64,000 bases of DNA from a virus, in IMG/VR virus record IMGVR_UViG_3300021560_000014, positions 1 to 64,000 of that record, one strand, 5' to 3'. Of this stretch, positions 11,155 to 28,323 are shown in pieces. Within the stretch, counting starts at the first letter, position 1. Each line of letters begins with the position of its first letter. A program made the translations under genes and the position numbers. A model generated the notes under the pieces. It was not told where the DNA came from. It searched no databases and saw only the letters and a program-made list of their open reading frames with translations.

Positions 11155-11315
11155 GGAAGGGTGCGGTCCCGCACTGGGTGCTGGTCGTGATGATCGTGAT
11201 CCTGTTCGTTGGCTATTTGATTAGCTGCTGTGTCACCTTGCAGCACGCGCCGGACACCACCCACGTCCTGCCCGCGCCGCAGGCGACCCCGGTGGGTTCC
11301 ACCAATGCCACGTAA
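11151..11315 (+). CDS. Small membrane or lipoprotein-like peptide
   Basis: ATGA overlap with the portal stop; MRKGAVPHWVLVVMIVILFVGYLISCC. Confidence 0.5.
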   Translation: MRKGAVPHWVLVVMIVILFVGYLISCCVTLQHAPDTTHVLPAPQATPVGSTNAT

Positions 11316-11913
11316 ACCGGGCCAGCGTACGGGCCGCGATGAGGGGCTCGTCATCAACGTGGTGCGCAAGCACACCGGCCCGAAGTCCCGCGCCTACTCG
11401 CGCGGCGCAACCCAGAAGTTCGGCTTTGCCGGGGGCATCGGCGCGCCCAGCCCGGTAAGAGTCTCCGGTCAGCCCACCTGGAGCGGCAGCACACAGACAA
11501 CAAATCCCAAGCCTGCGGCCCCGTTTCCTGCCCACCCCGAGCACTGGCACCGCGATGAGGACGGCACCATCACCAAGGGCGAGGCCCCGGTCGAGGAGGA
11601 GGTTGAGCATATTCACCGGCTCTCCCATGAGCACGTAAAGCGTGGCCACATTGTGGCCTTTGAAATTCCGCACTTTGGCGTCAAGGGTGAGGGGGAGGTG
11701 ACAGCCTATGGCCCGCGCGGCGTCACCATCCGCGATGGTGAGGGCGGCATGCGGCGGCTCTTCTATCACGAGCTGAACGAGGTCCGGCCTCCGGAGCCGC
11801 CCGAGAAGAAAAAGCCCAAAAAGAAGGAGCCGGTCGTTACTGGCACCAATATCCGCTCGGTGCTGCACGGCATCCGCAAGTGGTGGCAAAAGGAACGCGA
11901 GAAGAAGAAATAA
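11305..11913 (+). CDS. Hypothetical protein
   Basis: ORF from ATG 11305; contains an in-frame 21-bp motif (AAPFPAH). Confidence 0.6.
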   Translation: MPRKPGQRTGRDEGLVINVVRKHTGPKSRAYSRGATQKFGFAGGIGAPSPVRVSGQPTWSGSTQTTNPKPAAPFPAHPEHWHRDEDGTITKGEAPVEEEVEHIHRLSHEHVKRGHIVAFEIPHFGVKGEGEVTAYGPRGVTIRDGEGGMRRLFYHELNEVRPPEPPEKKKPKKKEPVVTGTNIRSVLHGIRKWWQKEREKKK

Positions 11914-14891: not shown

Positions 14892-15847
14892 GCTGTAAAG
14901 TCTGCCACGACCGTGGCTATATCCAGGTGGCATGGGGCAAGAGCGGTGAGCTTCAGATGACTAACCGCCGCTGCCCGGCATGTTCGACCACCGAGGACGA
15001 GATGTGGATGGCCAAGGCCGAGCGCCTGGACATCAACAAGCTCTCCCCGGAGTGGCAGACGTACATCCGCAACATGCCCGAGCCTGAGCCCTTGCCGGTC
15101 GATAAGAGGCCGCGCCTGCTCAAGCCATCCGAGGAGGTGGGAGGCGCGCCTGCTAAAAGGAGCCCGGCCAGGGATTGGGCGCGCAAGCTGAACCCCAAGA
15201 TACTGGAGCGCTATGGCAAGAGCGAGAAGGAGTCCGAGGCCCCCAAGGTCTCCGGGCACGGCAAGCTCTCCGAGCACACCCGCTCACGTATCGGTGCGGC
15301 TGGCTCCTCCAAGCGTGAGGAGATGCCCTCACACGTCTTCCTGCTCGGTGCTCAGCGCAAGTACCCAGTAAAACTCAAGTCCGGCGACAAGTGGGCCTAT
15401 TCGCCCCGGCTGCTCCTGGCAGCTGCACGGCGGGCGCGGATGCAGGGCCGCAGTGACCTCGCCTCGCGTGCTGACGCCATCCGGGCGCGGCTGGACAAGG
15501 GCTTCGCGCCTCATGTCAGCGGCATTCGCGAGCACCTCCTGCTGAAATCCCAGGGCTTCTACAAATCCTCCCGGCTGGGCCGGGCCTGGCGCTGGAACTG
15601 CAGCTGTGGCCACGCGGACACCGCGCCGACCGAACAGGAGGCCATCGATCAGTACGTCATGCACCGCGAGGAGGCGGGCATCCCGACCGGCGCATGGGGT
15701 CCGAACATGGGCCACCATCAGCTGCGCGAGGTGCAGGACACCCGCGACAGCGTAAAACACGCGCTCCCGGCGATGCAGGGCGTGCCGCCGCTGGCGGCCT
15801 ACATGCCGCCCTCGGGCATCATGGGTTTTCTGGAGCACCATGGTTAA
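14888..15847 (+). CDS. Putative head-associated multi-segment protein with Zn-ribbon motifs
   Basis: CxxC...CxxC start, KYPV segment, MAKA/LDKG/LLKS motifs. Confidence 0.6.
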   Translation: MSCKVCHDRGYIQVAWGKSGELQMTNRRCPACSTTEDEMWMAKAERLDINKLSPEWQTYIRNMPEPEPLPVDKRPRLLKPSEEVGGAPAKRSPARDWARKLNPKILERYGKSEKESEAPKVSGHGKLSEHTRSRIGAAGSSKREEMPSHVFLLGAQRKYPVKLKSGDKWAYSPRLLLAAARRARMQGRSDLASRADAIRARLDKGFAPHVSGIREHLLLKSQGFYKSSRLGRAWRWNCSCGHADTAPTEQEAIDQYVMHREEAGIPTGAWGPNMGHHQLREVQDTRDSVKHALPAMQGVPPLAAYMPPSGIMGFLEHHG

Positions 15848-18800
15848 TCCGATCATCGTTCTTGAGGTCTTCGATCTGTTCCAGAAGAGCCTCAGGCCAA
15901 CTACAAGTTGGAAACCCCTTGGTGATGGTTGGCACCAGGAGCCTCCCACGCCTCAGGCTGTAGCTAGAGCCAAGGTCAAAGGAGAGAAAGCCCAAGGTAA
16001 GCAGTGGCAGATTCACGAGTTTGCCAATGACGATTCCGCCCGTGTTGCACATATCATCAACCAGCTGATGCCCAAGGCCCCCGAAGGCAAGCTGGTCATC
16101 CACAACGACAAGATTGCCCTTGCCCGTGAGGCTGTACCGCAAGGCTACAAGAAGCTGGAGGGCCAGCCTGCTGAGCGCCATCGTGAGCGCATGGCCGGTC
16201 TTCATGCTCTGCTCAATACCAGTCCCGAGCACTTTGAACATTTCGCGCCGAAGGGCGATGACAGTGCTGGGGAGGTCCGCTCCCGCAGTACCGGCAAGGG
16301 GCTTTTCAATCATCTCAATGAGCAAAAGGACTGGGTCCCGGCCCGACATCTGGTAAGTCATCTTGCCGGTCAGATTCCCTCTGAGGGCCTGACCCGAGGC
16401 GTGAAGGATGCTGTCCAGCTCAGTGATGACCGGCTCGAAGACGCCATCGGTGATGCCGGGCTCGTTCCTGAGCACGCTGATTCCTTGTTGGAGCGGCTCA
16501 AGTCCCGGCGTGAGGATTTGCGCAAGCTGCTGGCCAGTGGTGAACTGCCGGGCGATTCCAACGAGAATAAGGCTTTCGCCGACAAGTATGACCCTGAGAG
16601 CTATGAGCGCGGGCCGCTGGTCGGGGCACCGCCGAACATCAAGACGCCGAAGGATCGTGAGGCGCTCAAGAAGCAGCTGGGACAGCTGGCTGACAAGGGC
16701 GCATTCGGCGCTGGCTGGTATCGCGACAGCGCGCAGGCGGTACATGATCGTTTCGGCGGCAACCTGCCCAAGATTCAGAAATACCTGGCGCTGCTGGCTG
16801 CGTATTCGCCGCAGTCAACTCCCAACCCCAACACTGAAGCAGCTGAGCGTGCGTGGCAGCATCATGAAGCGGGCCTGCCCAAGGAGACCCTGCGCGGCGG
16901 CGGTACCAACGAGCAGGACGATCAGGCTCGCGCGCTGCTCTACCACAATCACTGGCACTCGGGGCTGAAGACCAACGCCTTTTACCGCAACCTGATGCAC
17001 TACATCAAGGGAGGCACTGACCGGCCTCCCACCGCTGACGAGATGGCCAGGGGCGAGCTGCAGCCGGTTACCGTGGACCGCTGGGCCGCCCGCTCCATCG
17101 GCTATCCGATTCAGCTTGGCGAAAGCGCTCAAGAGGGTGAGGCCAAAGAGCGGACGGTAAGTCCCAGCAACTATCGCTTCTCGCGGCAGATTCTGAATGA
17201 GGTGGCCCACGAGAAGAAGCTCTCCGCGCATGAGCTGCAGGAGCGGATGTGGGTCGCCGAGAAGGGTGGCGCACTCGCGCGCAAGAACCTGATTGCCAAC
17301 TACGCCAAGGCCAAGGGCGAAAGCGTCAAGGACCTTACCAAGCAGGTCAACGCGGGCAACATCCCGGCTGGACTGGCGCGCCCGCTGAAGAACATCAAGA
17401 TTGACCCCAAGGCGATGACGGCCTCGAAGGAGAGCTTCGCGACCGGCCTGCATGAGCTGGGAGGCCATGTGGTCTCCGATCTGACTCCTGACCCGAGCAT
17501 GCTCGATACCAGCCAGCACTCCCATGAGCACAGGCAGGAGCTTCACAATCGGCTGCTGGAAGCACTCCACCAGGACAAGCGGCTGCGGGCCGCTGAGTTG
17601 CTCGGTGTCGGCGGCGCTCCGGCCAAGGTCGGGGCTTCCGGTCACCTCTACGCGGGTGCCGTGATGCCTCGGTCGTTGATTTCCGTGGCCGCGCAGGAAG
17701 GCGTCCCGTCTGGTGATCTGGCTTTGATGCGCGGTCAGATCACCCCGAACTCGCTGCGGCGCATTCGTGGCATGGCCCATGGGCTGGCTCATCTTCTTGG
17801 CCAGAAGTCAGTCGAGTTCCATCGCCCGATTAATGTCCAGGGTTTTCGCAAGGAAGACCTGAACGGGACCAACCTCAAGACCGGCGAGCTGGCCCCGCAT
17901 GAGCTGCACGCCCTGCAGCAAGCCATCTCGCAGAAGCTGGGAACTCCCACGGTCCCGGTCCCTTACGGGGACGGCGTTTACGTCGTCAACCATTCAGGTC
18001 GTCCGAACGACGATTTTCATGAAGCAGTTAAAGCCACCGCCAATGAGGTCCTGAACCAGCCGCAAGTCAGCACCATCGGCGGCGCTGCTGGCCGTCAGCG
18101 GCGGCGGCCCGACATTGACGCCGGACGGTTCTATGCTTCCGGCGAACGTCTGGAGGATACCAGTGAAGGTCATCGACAAAGGGCCGTTGCCTCCCTCGGA
18201 CCCGCTCTTTCGGGAAGGTTTTTCGCTGAACACGCTCCACTCCTTAGACCCGTCTATGAGCAGTACGCCCGCGAGCACGGGGTCCCGCTCAACCTCCCGT
18301 CCGCGTATAGTGCTGGCGAGGAAGAACCAAAAAAGAAAGCCAGAAAGAAAGTAGCGGCCCTGGCACGGGCCTGGGGCTGGCTGACGCGAGGACGCGTCGA
18401 GGGGGAGGAGCCCTTCGCTACGCGAGACCCCAACGAAGCGCGCGAGCCATCCAATGTGCGAGACCCAGACGATGAGCGCGAGCCCCTCAGCACGCGAAAC
18501 CCGAATCTGCCGCGCGAGCCGATGTGGGGGCGAAGCCCAGACGAGACGCGTGACACCCTAAACTTGCGGCCCCGTTTCCTGCCCACCCTGGTGCTGAAGT
18601 CATGGTTACTGCCGGACGCGGAGGAAGAGGTTGAAGGCGAGGTCCAAAAATCGGGTGGACGCGCCGCCGACTTCTTTTCCTCCGCTCCTTTAACGGTGCT
18701 GAGCAAATCCATTGCCCCTCGGCCCAAGGCCCGTAAACCCCCTGGCGGCCTGAGCCGGATGATGTACAGCGATCCGGCGCTTAGCCAGTTCGACATGACC

Positions 18801-21158
18801 CGCGAGCAGGGCTACTCCAACCCGTGGTACAAGCTCAAGGCTGTGCGCCACAAGGGTGTCACCTACCTTGGCGCGAACCATCCTTCTGATCATCACGAGT
18901 TCATCGCCGACCGCATCAAGCGCAAAGTCCCCCGGCAGATGGATATGTCAGTGCCAGCTGTTGGCCATGAGAAGGCCAACATGCAGTACGGCTTCATCGG
19001 CCACGACCACCGCTTCTATACCATGAGCGAGATGGAGGACAAGGTTAAGGCCGGGGAGACCACGCTCGGCAAGTCGCTGCTGATTGTGCTCGAAAAGTCC
19101 GAGGTCGCCCACGTCCTGCACTACCAGCAGCCGGGCATCAGGCTGCCGGGGGCGACAACCAAAGAGCACCACGGCATGATGATCGGGACTGACAAGGACC
19201 ACAACATCATCGCCTCGCTGCACTATGATCACTACAAGACCCCTGGGGAGAAGGAGGGCAGCGGCATTCACGTCGCCTCGCTGCAATCGTCCTCGCCCTT
19301 CGCCGGGGCCGATCTGATGAAGCACATTGTGCATCACGCGGCCCGCAACCGTGCGGAGCTGCACGGTACGCCGGTTGCCAGCGGCAGCACGGGCCGGGTG
19401 CAGAACTATTACCATCACCTGGTCCGGCGCTATGGCGGCGCATCGCGGGCCGAGCTGATCAAGCCTGAGGGCAAGGAAGACATCCGTCATATCGGGGCCG
19501 ATGCAGTCAAGGACCTGAGCTTAGCGCCGGGCATGAAGCCGCCGCAGAAGCGCAAGCAGGTCAAGGTCAGCATGTCCGATTATCAGTACATCGCCGACCG
19601 CACCGATCCGGGCAAGGGCGTCAAGATTCACCCCGATAAGCCGCTGGAGCTGTACAAGGGCCACGGCAACGTGAACACGTCCGGGGTCAATACCCGCTCG
19701 CGCACTGAGGAAGAGAAACGCCGTCGGGCGCGCGATCCGATGATCGACCCCGACGAACTCGAAAACACGCCCTGGTACAACGACTCGGTGAAGAAATCAC
19801 TCAACGACCCGTACATCGCGGCGCGGGCGCTCAAGCACACACCGAGTGGGCGGGTATGGCAGCTGCCGGAGCATGAGACCCACCTCGACGGCGTCGCCCG
19901 GCTCTCAAAGCAGCACGGTCTCGATCATGAGGATTGGGAGGGCGGCTACGTCGGTCACGACGGGCTCTATTACAACTACGAGCAGCTGGGCGACCGGATG
20001 GAGGCGCACAGCAAGTGGAACCGAATCCGGCGTGGGCAGCGGATTAAGTTCAATGACGGGCAGGCGGTCAAGTTTGAGAAGTCACTCGCGGTCGTCCTGG
20101 CCAAGGCCGCCAAGATCATCCCCTTCCCGACAAAGCATCCCTTCGAGGCCGAGGCCAAGAAATACGGGGCGAAGCCTGAGGAGTACGCCCGTGTCCACAA
20201 GTTCTACGTCGGCGATCCTGAGAAGATCGACAACTATTACAAGAACATCAAGCCGGTGTGGAATAAGTCTGCCCGCCGCAAGCTGCACTACCGCAAGACC
20301 TTCCAGGGCTTCGACATCTCGATTGAGAACCGGCCTGGCAGCTACCGGCATTGGACCCATCCTGACGGCAGGCCGGGCAAGACCCTGATGCGCCGACCAT
20401 ATGGTTATATCAAGAATTCCGAGGGCCTCGACGGCGATCACGTCGATGTCTTCCTCGGGCCGAATGAGCAGTCGCCGACGGCCTATATCATCCACCAGCT
20501 GAAGGCCCCCGACTTCACGACATTCGATGAGGACAAGGTTATACTGGGAGCTGATTCAGCTGCTGAGGCTCAGCGCATCTACCTCGATCACTACGACGAC
20601 CCGCGCTTCTTCGGCGGTATGACCGCGATGCCCCTCGGTGAGTTCCGCCAGAAGGTCTTCGCGACTGAGGATCAGCCGCAGATGATTAAGAGTTTCCTGT
20701 ATCACGCGACCCTCTCGCCCAACTTGGGCGGCATTGTGAAGCATGGCCTTTTGGGCGAGGAGGAGCGGCCTCGTGAGGACGGCCTCGGCGCTCCGAGATC
20801 GAATTGGCATTTCTCAGATAATCCTGAGAACAAGGTGTGGCTGGCCGATAAGCGCTCGGGGGCCAGCTACTACGGCAAGATTGCTGCAAGGAACCATGCA
20901 AACAACTACGGGTACAAGCCCTATGTGCCGATGCTGCGGGTAAACAAGAAGCACGTCGAGGGCCTGGAAGACCGGGGTAGGGGAGAGTTCGTAGGCGCGC
21001 GTGTTCACCCTCAGCACCTGGAAATCCACATTCATGGCCAGTGGCACCCGCTGACTGGAGGTCACCCGGCGATTGAGTCGATAGCTGGTCATGAATGGGA
21101 CGAGGAAACCGAGAAGTCCTTCAGGAAGGGCGGCAAGAAAGAAGTCGCAAGGCGCTAG
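15840..21158 (+). CDS. Large polyvalent protein (HhH-like, GNAT-like, InPase-like and ADP-ribosyltransferase-like segments)
   Basis: 1772 aa. GWY...SPQ...KTNAF...VTVDRWAAR; ISIEN..GSYR...YGYI...DGDHVDVFLG...DEDKV; LYHAT...IVKHGL...VWLA. Confidence 0.75.
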   Translation: MVNPIIVLEVFDLFQKSLRPTTSWKPLGDGWHQEPPTPQAVARAKVKGEKAQGKQWQIHEFANDDSARVAHIINQLMPKAPEGKLVIHNDKIALAREAVPQGYKKLEGQPAERHRERMAGLHALLNTSPEHFEHFAPKGDDSAGEVRSRSTGKGLFNHLNEQKDWVPARHLVSHLAGQIPSEGLTRGVKDAVQLSDDRLEDAIGDAGLVPEHADSLLERLKSRREDLRKLLASGELPGDSNENKAFADKYDPESYERGPLVGAPPNIKTPKDREALKKQLGQLADKGAFGAGWYRDSAQAVHDRFGGNLPKIQKYLALLAAYSPQSTPNPNTEAAERAWQHHEAGLPKETLRGGGTNEQDDQARALLYHNHWHSGLKTNAFYRNLMHYIKGGTDRPPTADEMARGELQPVTVDRWAARSIGYPIQLGESAQEGEAKERTVSPSNYRFSRQILNEVAHEKKLSAHELQERMWVAEKGGALARKNLIANYAKAKGESVKDLTKQVNAGNIPAGLARPLKNIKIDPKAMTASKESFATGLHELGGHVVSDLTPDPSMLDTSQHSHEHRQELHNRLLEALHQDKRLRAAELLGVGGAPAKVGASGHLYAGAVMPRSLISVAAQEGVPSGDLALMRGQITPNSLRRIRGMAHGLAHLLGQKSVEFHRPINVQGFRKEDLNGTNLKTGELAPHELHALQQAISQKLGTPTVPVPYGDGVYVVNHSGRPNDDFHEAVKATANEVLNQPQVSTIGGAAGRQRRRPDIDAGRFYASGERLEDTSEGHRQRAVASLGPALSGRFFAEHAPLLRPVYEQYAREHGVPLNLPSAYSAGEEEPKKKARKKVAALARAWGWLTRGRVEGEEPFATRDPNEAREPSNVRDPDDEREPLSTRNPNLPREPMWGRSPDETRDTLNLRPRFLPTLVLKSWLLPDAEEEVEGEVQKSGGRAADFFSSAPLTVLSKSIAPRPKARKPPGGLSRMMYSDPALSQFDMTREQGYSNPWYKLKAVRHKGVTYLGANHPSDHHEFIADRIKRKVPRQMDMSVPAVGHEKANMQYGFIGHDHRFYTMSEMEDKVKAGETTLGKSLLIVLEKSEVAHVLHYQQPGIRLPGATTKEHHGMMIGTDKDHNIIASLHYDHYKTPGEKEGSGIHVASLQSSSPFAGADLMKHIVHHAARNRAELHGTPVASGSTGRVQNYYHHLVRRYGGASRAELIKPEGKEDIRHIGADAVKDLSLAPGMKPPQKRKQVKVSMSDYQYIADRTDPGKGVKIHPDKPLELYKGHGNVNTSGVNTRSRTEEEKRRRARDPMIDPDELENTPWYNDSVKKSLNDPYIAARALKHTPSGRVWQLPEHETHLDGVARLSKQHGLDHEDWEGGYVGHDGLYYNYEQLGDRMEAHSKWNRIRRGQRIKFNDGQAVKFEKSLAVVLAKAAKIIPFPTKHPFEAEAKKYGAKPEEYARVHKFYVGDPEKIDNYYKNIKPVWNKSARRKLHYRKTFQGFDISIENRPGSYRHWTHPDGRPGKTLMRRPYGYIKNSEGLDGDHVDVFLGPNEQSPTAYIIHQLKAPDFTTFDEDKVILGADSAAEAQRIYLDHYDDPRFFGGMTAMPLGEFRQKVFATEDQPQMIKSFLYHATLSPNLGGIVKHGLLGEEERPREDGLGAPRSNWHFSDNPENKVWLADKRSGASYYGKIAARNHANNYGYKPYVPMLRVNKKHVEGLEDRGRGEFVGARVHPQHLEIHIHGQWHPLTGGHPAIESIAGHEWDEETEKSFRKGGKKEVARR
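18404..18552 (+). ncRNA. TIGR-like array 4 (4 units) embedded in frame in the 1772-aa ORF
   Basis: GAGCC cttcgctac GCGAGACCC caacgaagc GCGCGAGCC atccaatgt GCGAGACCC agacgatga GCGCGAGCC cctcagcac GCGAAACCC gaatctgcc GCGCGAGCC gatgtgggg GCGAAGCCC agacgagac GCGTG. Confidence 0.85.
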
Positions 21159-27316: not shown

Positions 27317-27421
27317 GCGGCCCCGTTTCCTGCCCACCCAAGACCACCCAAGCCTGCGGCCCCGTTTCCTGCCCACCCACGCCGTGGCCACACCTTCGTT
27401 GCGGCCCCGTTTCCTGCCCAC
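27317..27421 (+). repeat. Three copies of the 21-bp motif GCGGCCCCGTTTCCTGCCCAC
   Basis: Exact copies at 27317, 27356 and 27401. Confidence 0.95.
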
Positions 27422-27424
27422 CCC

Positions 27425-27454
27425 TTGACATTGTTGTTTGCTTTCCTATAGACC
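27425..27454 (+). promoter_or_regulatory. Candidate sigma70-type promoter for the protease/scaffold/capsid operon
   Basis: TTGACA at 27425-27430 and TATAGA at 27447-27452, in an AT-rich patch. Confidence 0.55.
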
Positions 27455-27495
27455 TGTCGCAATTACCCACCTCGGGCTGTTGCGCAAGCAGGGAG

Positions 27496-28323
27496 TTGAG
27501 GCGGTCGTGGCCCCTTGTGCAACGCATAGGCGAATCCTTCCGTTTTCAGATGGACGTGCTCGCGAAAAGCGAGGGCACGGGCTCGTCTGAAGTTCGCCGC
27601 CTCTCCGGTGTAGCCTCAGCCAACTGTCAGGACGCCGTCGGCGAGACCGTGCTGCAGAAGGGCATGGACCCCCGGCCTGCGGTCGAGCGCGGTTTTATCA
27701 ACTGGGACCACATGGAGGGGCCGCGTTTCATCATCGGCTACCCGACCCGCTGCGAGTTTGTGTACTCGCAGGACCATCCCGAGTTGCGCGATCACCCCGA
27801 GCTGGGCAAGTCCGGCCTCGTGCTCTGGGCTGAAGGCAATCTCTGGGAGCCGGGTCGCCACCATGGGGCCGACGAGGCGTGGGAGTTAGCGAAGGCCCTT
27901 CAGGGAACCCCGCGACATCTCTCCTGGTCCGTGCAGGGCCGGGTAGTCGAACGCGATCCAACCGGGACTAAGATTCTTAAATCCATTGTGACGCAGCTGG
28001 CGCTGACCCATCAACCCATCCTCCAGGTCAGCTTCGCCGACATCGCAAAGTCCTTCGGCGCGGCCTCGACCCCGATGGGAGTGATGACAACAGGCAGTGC
28101 CAGCCCTCTCCTCCTCGAAAATCTCGACGGCAAGTTAACCAAGACTCTCTACGGCTACTGCAAGTCGGGGCAGTGCTTCGACAACAAGGGCCGCTTTTAC
28201 AAAGGCGTTAGGGGTGCCCTGGCGCACCTTCATTACTGTCACGACGAGTCGATACCTGACTCGAAGGACTATCTTCAAGCGCTCATCCGCTCAGGAATCA
28301 TGGGCGCGGGTGCAGGAGCTTAG
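27496..28323 (+). CDS. Prohead protease
   Basis: GVAS...D..GE.V.QKG, GFINWDH, IGYP, WSVQG, ALTHQP; lies before scaffold and capsid. Confidence 0.85.
   Translation: MRRSWPLVQRIGESFRFQMDVLAKSEGTGSSEVRRLSGVASANCQDAVGETVLQKGMDPRPAVERGFINWDHMEGPRFIIGYPTRCEFVYSQDHPELRDHPELGKSGLVLWAEGNLWEPGRHHGADEAWELAKALQGTPRHLSWSVQGRVVERDPTGTKILKSIVTQLALTHQPILQVSFADIAKSFGAASTPMGVMTTGSASPLLLENLDGKLTKTLYGYCKSGQCFDNKGRFYKGVRGALAHLHYCHDESIPDSKDYLQALIRSGIMGAGAGA

Follow-up and report, generated by a model that had tools for sequence, protein, structure and literature searches.

TIGR-Tas systems were described in 2025. Dual-repeat TIGR arrays consist of short repeats that alternate with 9-nucleotide (nt) spacers in units of 36 nt, and carry truncated edge repeats at both ends (Faure et al. 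2025, PMC12045711). Published work has established that such arrays are cut mid-edge into 36-nt guides in a Tas-dependent manner, that TasH processes its own arrays independently of metal through Y289 and H296, and that TasA-guide complexes repress transcription at matching DNA. Intragenic tigRNAs are also expressed; however, the reported cases all lie within tas genes and are mostly of the stem-loop type, as in BlTasA of Bifidobacterium longum (Xu et al. 2026, bioRxiv 10.64898/2026.09.09.750476). Here we describe a dual-repeat TIGR array that lies in frame within a gene other than tas. It was found in the first 64 kb (hereafter, the window) of the 105,936-bp virus record IMGVR_UViG_3300021560_000014 from IMG/VR, a soil phage (61.5% G+C), inside an open reading frame (ORF) of 1772 codons. 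The closest known systems are the dual-repeat TIGR-TasA system of Flavonifractor plautii (FpTIGR, PMC12045711), TaTasR (9MTY) and SpTasH.

The embedded array comprises four head-to-tail units at positions 18404–18547, which start at 18404, 18440, 18476 and 18512 with a period of exactly 36 nt. Each unit is composed of an edge repeat, 9 variable nt, a loop repeat and another 9 variable nt, both spacers being 9 nt long in all four units. The edge consensus GCGYGAGCC, the loop consensus GCGRRRCCC and the 9-nt spacers are common to these units and to ~95 others in the 106-kb genome. Edges 2–4 are perfect GCGCGAGCC, and the loops read GCGAGACCC twice and GCGAAACCC and GCGAAGCCC once each. The first edge is degenerate or 5′-truncated (GGAGGAGCC) and retains GAGCC alone, a feature shared with the opening units of the phage's other arrays. 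Only the repeats are conserved across the four units, which are periodic but not identical. The original prediction for this stretch, which our analysis followed up, had spoken of four exact units and in this respect was overstated; its coordinates, period, spacer lengths, encoded peptide and trailing motif all agreed with our reading of the sequence, the parsing of the units and the translation.

In the TIGRFinder scheme, a half unit consists of box C (CCR), a 9-nt spacer, box D (CG) and a 4-nt gap, and the boxes of a dual-repeat array could be placed here accordingly. The gaps read YGAG in the edges, so that the ends can pair, and RRRC in the loops; box D is present at all eight positions, while box C is CCR at five of the eight and CCC at the other three. 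All units lie on the + strand. Unit 1 (18404–18439) combines the edge GGAGGAGCC with the loop GCGAGACCC and has CCC as both box C triplets, whereas unit 2 (18440–18475) is fully canonical. Unit 3 (18476–18511) has canonical repeats, with CCC as the box C preceding spacer A, and unit 4 (18512–18547) is canonical. Full edges flank units 2 and 3 on both sides; the outer edges of units 1 and 4 are truncated. A 3′-truncated terminal edge (GCGTGA; 18548–18556, +) merges into a degenerate GTGTACAC-like box, and every other array in the genome terminates with the same kind of truncated GCGYR. A copy of what we call the junction motif (core CCGTTTCCTGCCCAC; 18562–18588, +) then follows, reading LRPRFLPT in frame and sharing 23–27 identical nt with many other copies in the genome. 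The array and the motif together account for an insert of 60 codons (18408–18587, +; residues 857–916), made up of an array-coded peptide with a 12-residue period and a motif-coded peptide; Arg recurs at every sixth residue.

The locus therefore displays two distinct, alternating repeats of 8–12 nt with ~9-nt spacers, 36-nt units, a 5′-truncated edge at its start and a 3′-truncated edge at its end. A rho-independent terminator after a dual-repeat array has been described as typical but not obligatory; our scan detected no terminator-like site in or directly after the embedded array, the nearest weak match downstream starting at 18654. The other arrays of this phage likewise run straight into the next gene. 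At the level of sequence, this anatomy, the same as that of the intergenic arrays, shows the embedded array to be a dual-repeat TIGR array built from the repeats typical of this phage.

To assess the standing of the array, a position matrix was trained on 70 intergenic units, which scored from 18 to 38 with a median of 30. Units 2, 3 and 4 scored 35.5 (rank 66/70), 21.8 (rank 2/70, within the range) and 30.4 (about the median), respectively. Unit 1, evaluated over positions 5–36, the part that a first unit needs, scored 19.7 against a median of 24.3 (rank 12/70). Across both strands of the 106-kb genome, only ~83 sequence windows reached a score of 20 or more, and all clusters of windows scoring 15 or more corresponded to recognised arrays. 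Because units 2–4 score within the training range and the high-scoring clusters are all recognised arrays, the embedded array is real and chance is excluded. The edge GCGYGAGCC alone occurs 40 times in the window, compared with 4.2 expected occurrences, and 91 times in the whole genome, nearly always inside one of ~13 phased arrays on either strand. By contrast, neither the uniform spacers nor the absence of stop codons is special: in this frame, 79% of intergenic units contain no stop (P ~ 0.38 for four consecutive units), and 77% of all units have the 36-nt period (P ~ 0.35). The original prediction had contrasted the invariant 9-nt spacers of this array with the 8–11 nt tolerated by the intergenic arrays; the difference exists, but it is not statistically meaningful for four units.

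The candidate effector is encoded by the same phage. A 344-codon ORF at genome positions 87586–88620 (− strand), outside the window and 69 kb from the array, gave a phmmer match to TaTasR (9mty). A search with the DNA pattern of the repeat pair alone retrieved 26 unrelated contigs, and in 13 of these independent contigs a homologue of the phage protein lay beside the array. A profile built from nine such array-adjacent homologues matched TaTasR (E = 1.8e-52) and TasH (E = 4e-26), and IS110-type transposases at ~1e-6. The Pfam Nop model had no match in six frames of the genome, because Tas proteins are too distant from that model. Neither relatives of the phage Tas protein nor the repeat pattern were found in IMG/VR. 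Since no nuclease domain was detected in the protein, we refer to it as TasA; it retains the equivalent of H296 of SpTasH.

Two further observations concern tasA itself. Its longest ORF opens within the last unit of the adjacent array (genome 88579–88620, minus; MIERNPNMKREERK...), and a strong ribosome-binding site precedes the next ATG (MRKKP...), which suggests that the real TasA has 330 residues and that the N-terminal extension is array-coded by accident. In the closest relative of TasA (~70% identity; L015:3715–5688, metagenome contig Ga0126371_10012173), an in-frame insert of ~300 residues begins with Cys, ends with CN followed by Ser, and has weak Hint and intein-splicing matches at its two ends; it is probably an intein in the tasA gene.

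The ORF that harbors the array (15840–21158, +; 1772 residues, roughly 195 kDa) encodes a protein of the polyvalent, head-associated type, as judged from the ORF list, Pfam and PHROG. Pfam identified an InPase domain (PF18823, E = 3.7e-33, residues 1485–1605) and DUF7178 (E = 1.5e-7, residues 288–475), and modules of the form NPxY..KAV.H.G are repeated from about residue 977. The PHROG matches were minor head, virion structural and DarB-like polyvalent proteins, and terL and portal genes lie upstream. A very large ORF that combines InPase with other modules among head genes corresponds to a polyvalent protein, and we infer that the product is packaged into the virion. It contains no Nop domain, and the host gene is not tas.

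We further considered whether the 1772 codons form one gene. No stop codon interrupts the frame between 15840 and 21158, and the array peptide occupies residues 857–916. In this frame, high G+C content at third and low G+C content at second codon positions were observed on both sides of the array, up to about residue 700 and again beyond about residue 950, with a weaker signal between. No start codon with a ribosome-binding site was found downstream of the motif at 18562–18588, unlike at true gene junctions of this phage. A full HMMER search with residues 560–1250 against 1.84 billion representative proteins yielded two relatives. One of these, P0003, is a homologue of 1746 residues, encoded on a 9.7-kb Logan contig from a different assembly, that aligns to residues 13–836 (34% identity) and again to residues 1324–1634, including InPase. 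The other, P0002, is a protein of 342 residues with two copies of the module carried by the ORF from about residue 977, and matches residues 977–1078 only. Among the same 1.84 billion representatives, no shorter protein matched residues 560–976. Because P0003 carries both the N-terminal and the C-terminal modules, both belong to one chain in this independent relative. The absence of a stop, the coding signal on both sides in the same frame, the missing downstream start signal and a homologue spanning both halves thus indicate that the ORF is one gene, as far as its sequence tells. The possibility, raised by the original prediction as a potential refutation, that two genes flank the array was thereby not borne out.

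The same comparison supports the location of the array in a non-conserved linker between conserved modules, since the homology with P0003 ends at residue 836 and resumes at 1324, and the module shared with P0002 and P0003 starts at about residue 977. The original prediction had placed the array in an inter-domain linker of one continuous gene, and the alignment is in accord with this. The linker of P0003 is different and unrelated, with neither the REP/RDP period of 12 residues nor the 60-codon insert. The insert is therefore specific to this lineage, and the outcome that would have spoken against a guide array, namely homologues that keep the peptide and lose the nucleotide repeats, was not encountered: the one full-length homologue lacks the peptide. 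A single-sequence AlphaFold2 model of residues 700–1100 showed no secondary structure at 851–998, although its mean predicted local distance difference test score was only 38, too low for the model to be relied on. When the 60 codons were removed, the flanks aligned slightly better with P0003, but the local score of 28 was reached by 12% of shuffles and a clean insertion was not significant. No relatives of the ORF were found in INPHARED or IMG/VR, a word-based protein search returned the query alone, and a metagenome scan gave no match to the DNA that encodes P0003. As a separate observation, the peptide VEGE is encoded both just 5′ of the array (18396–18407) and 14 codons past the junction motif (18629–18640), the two copies agreeing at 9 of 12 bases; they may be what is left of a target duplication, or may have arisen by chance.

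We then compared the codons of the array with codon usage in 35 confident coding segments of the phage (33 genes and the two halves of the 1772-codon ORF). The reading frame passes through the array as xxG CGY GAG CCN ... xxG CGA RRC CCN. The Arg codon in the loop is CGA in all four units, while CGA makes up 4% of Arg codons (P ~ 3e-6), and G occupies the wobble position before box D at seven of seven fourfold sites, against an expectation of 33% (P ~ 4e-4). The bases at these silent sites are therefore set by the array consensus and not by translation. The third base of box C, which is a Pro wobble position, yielded a mixed picture: the rare codon CCA is kept at three of eight positions (9% usage, P = 0.03), and CCC stands in place of CCR at the three positions noted above. 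This pattern looks like a compromise between two codes, or as though units 1 and 3 had begun to erode. The ORF enters the array in the phase in which the repeats can never yield a stop codon, whereas in the phase used by terL and other genes the TGA in the edge terminates the gene.

Three intergenic arrays with the same repeat pair are found on the + strand around terL (identified by Pfam), at 2743–3030, ~4174–4566 and 6083–7086. In at least five arrays other than the embedded one, the stop codon of the upstream gene lies within the 5′-truncated first edge as TGAGCC, TAAGCC or TAGCC (window 2734–2742, 4158–4164 and 6086–6091; genome 97236, 87590, 72880 (minus)); at the other end, the terminal truncated edge borders on the ribosome-binding site of the following gene, tasA being one example. 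The arrays therefore take up intergenic gaps inside operons in full. Within the second of the three arrays, at 4298–4369, an edge plus one spacer (GAACAAAGG or AAACAAAGG) is repeated in four 18-nt tandem copies without an intervening loop; this is a local duplication, which may bear on array growth.

The junction motif occurs in 38 copies in the genome and is often extended to ~30–45 nt by an upstream GTGTACAC box. Its sites in the window are 1309–1448, 1885, 6925, 7107, 9092, 9415, 11515, 18566, 27317–27423, 42503, 45026, 57837/57900 and 61258. Because 31 of the 38 copies lie on the + strand regardless of how the local genes are oriented, the motif points to a polarity at the DNA level rather than to a promoter or terminator. 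On the opposite strand, some copies provide the following gene with its ribosome-binding site. At 27317–27460, three tandem motifs lie directly 5′ of a promoter close to consensus (TTGACA, 17 nt, TATAGA) and oriented towards the genes that start at 27496. As in the embedded array, the motif follows intergenic arrays at 6925 and 7107, and 18404–18588 therefore looks like a complete gene-junction cassette within a gene.

Junction motifs are also found in frame elsewhere. Four copies read as PFPAH in the ribonucleotide reductase ORF at 91–2010 (1309–1448 and 1885–1907), three between the barrel and the TSCPD domain and one between TSCPD and the C-terminal zinc ribbon. Single in-frame copies, likewise read as PFPAH, occur in the ORF at 11221–11913 (11515–11537) and in a ParB-like/DUF4417 ORF (genome 79195–79217). 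In-frame junction elements are thus a recurrent habit of the genome. No other array was found in frame in a long coding ORF, either in this genome or in the 26 fetched loci; one apparent further case, in a contig of 72% GC, is a probable chance match.

Taken together, these results lead us to consider it probable, if by no means assured, that a cassette of intergenic type, consisting of the four-unit TIGR array and the junction motif, resides in frame in a variable linker of a single virion-type gene and yields guides from the sense mRNA. A single stretch of DNA appears to specify guides as well as a protein linker. No sigma-70-like promoter was detected within 800 nt of the array, and the array RNA is less folded than shuffled sequences (z = +2.0); for these reasons, the array is most likely transcribed in sense within the long mRNA of the structural gene. 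The nuclease-free TasA would bind the array RNA, and either TasA or a host RNase would cut mid-edge, which would release two to four 36-nt guides per transcript. Each processed transcript would be lost for protein synthesis, because its 5′ half lacks a stop codon and its 3′ half lacks a start signal, and only unprocessed transcripts would give the full-length product, with a linker of 60 residues rich in Pro, Arg, Asp and Glu. The site would accordingly gain guides at the expense of a protein of which few copies are probably required. Arrays and motifs lie at gene and domain boundaries throughout the genome, and the process that put them there probably also brought the cassette to this site. 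A length divisible by three and a frame without a fixed stop may have allowed it to survive.

Several observations weigh against guide production from this site. The 3′ end of the array carries the junction motif and not a terminator hairpin, which departs from the published norm. TasA has W at the position of the catalytic Y289 of SpTasH, as does TaTasR, and autonomous cutting is therefore uncertain. The third base of box C is C at three of eight positions, compared with 6 of 140 intergenic positions (P = 0.004), CCC being a preferred Pro codon. A search of the phage itself for self-targets of the four guides, in both tandem geometries with gaps of 0–2, yielded none; the best matches, scored without a shuffle control, had 3–4 mismatches out of 18 and look like chance. 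Finally, a single full-length homologue is known, and a recent neutral insertion would give the same pattern at synonymous sites; with four units and no relatives, recent insertion and selection on the RNA are indistinguishable from sequence.

The main alternative, which we regard as a possible but less likely explanation, is that the cassette is a tolerated passenger or relic in a permissive linker, harmless and without useful guides, which is slowly being recoded to good codons. This would fit the chance probabilities of the stop-free frame and uniform spacers given above (~0.38 and ~0.35), as well as the single intragenic case among ~13 arrays, as expected for random placement filtered by viability. 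The enrichment of CCC at box C in units 1 and 3, the outer edges of units 1 and 4, which are truncated only, the lack of guide targets in the phage and the homologue that does without the insert, from which the protein evidently does not need it, are likewise consistent with a passenger. However, all full edges and all loops are perfect, whereas the spacers differ from one another as much as unrelated ones. Compared with the other 159 spacers, those of the four units had nearest-neighbour distances equal to the shuffled expectation. The wobble G at seven of seven sites and the rare CGA in four of four units have been retained, and so has the rare CCA at three of the eight box C positions. The sense orientation also implies transcription with the gene, and TasA should bind transcripts bearing intact units.

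It is improbable that the structural gene contains, in this array, an intron-like segment that yields guides, or a switch. Since cuts would fall at the same place in each edge and the period is 12 codons, excision of any number of units followed by rejoining would restore the frame, and the rejoining could use a host RtcB-type ligase acting on cyclic-phosphate and 5′-OH ends. Alternatively, the level of TasA might set the amount of full-length polyvalent protein and couple guide supply to virion assembly. No phage-encoded RtcB or RNA ligase was found in the record, which is 76% complete.

We attach similarly little weight to an error in the assembly or sequencing, by which an array that is truly intergenic between two genes would have been given a continuous frame through a mistake or a chimeric join at the junction motif. 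The cassette does resemble the gene junctions of this phage exactly, with an array followed by the motif; the record is a metagenome assembly in which 38 near-identical motif copies could confuse an assembler; and the coding signal is weaker at residues 700–950. Against this, 15840–21158 contains no in-frame stop and has the same-frame coding signal on both sides, the motif is not followed by a ribosome-binding site and start codon, and an independent protein of 1746 residues contains the N-terminal and C-terminal InPase modules in one chain. Moreover, the 1.84 billion representatives included no short protein matching residues 560–976, P0002 covering 977–1078 only.

Equally improbable is that the REP...RDP period of 12 residues owes its presence to selection on the peptide, which might serve as a flexible or protease-sensitive linker, and resembles a guide array only outwardly. 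The peptide is indeed linker-like in its abundance of Pro, Arg, Asp and Glu, and among the four second spacers three code for acidic runs and have ACGA in common at positions 3–6, two of them sharing AGACGA. However, the nucleotide repeats are identical to those of non-coding arrays even at synonymous sites and in the rare codon, the boundaries have the anatomy of an array, and the homologue has no such peptide. Origin-type iterons resembling those of lambda gene O, partition sites and operator sites were dropped, as the repeats match TIGR anatomy and a Tas gene was found.

The locus shows that a dual-repeat array can occupy, in frame, a gene that is unrelated to its effector and distant from it. 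Array finders limited to the vicinity of tas or to intergenic DNA miss such guides, and gene callers read them as odd peptide repeats. The locus also offers a natural setting in which to test for competition between guide processing and translation of the host mRNA. The overlaps with stop codons, the in-frame motifs in linkers and the embedded array together point to a boundary-seeking spread of arrays and motifs. Should the array prove to be unprocessed, the finding would reduce to a tolerated insertion.

Nucleic-acid signals within coding sequences have precedents outside TIGR systems. The iterons of the lambda origin lie inside gene O as tandem DNA signals, in frame, in the linker between two domains, and are bound by the protein that they encode. 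The embedded array is similar in that tandem signals occupy a linker in frame, but its repeats would serve as RNA guide scaffolds for a protein encoded elsewhere. Rickettsia palindromic elements are short genomic repeats that are tolerated in frame in genes at fold-neutral positions. Compared with these, the junction motif of the phage is 25–45 nt long, is not palindromic, lies mostly at gene junctions and is strongly strand-biased.

Among TIGR systems, the locus shares with dual-repeat TIGR-TasA the alternating 9-nt repeats, the 9-nt spacers, the 36-nt units and the truncated edges at the ends, together with a nuclease-free, Nop-domain Tas protein encoded by the same phage and a weakly folded RNA from the sense strand. 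It differs from dual-repeat TIGR-TasA in that the array lies within a protein-coding gene, 69 kb from tas, and ends in the junction motif instead of a terminator hairpin, and in that the phage has about a dozen scattered arrays and not a single array beside tas. As with the intragenic tigRNAs of BlTasA, the units are in frame, the ORF is undisrupted, the segment may be unstructured, and there are two candidate sources of guides, the mRNA or an internal promoter. However, the host gene encodes a polyvalent, virion-type protein far from tas and is not tas itself, and the units are of the dual-repeat kind, the less frequent case according to Xu et al. (2026), and not stem-loop units. Their proposal that guide maturation is linked to translation of Tas cannot apply to the phage ORF. 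The TIGR-Tas system is itself known, and only the location of the array is unusual: what is particular here is that a dual-repeat array, accompanied by an in-frame junction motif, occupies a gene of the polyvalent virion type at a distance of 69 kb from the effector.

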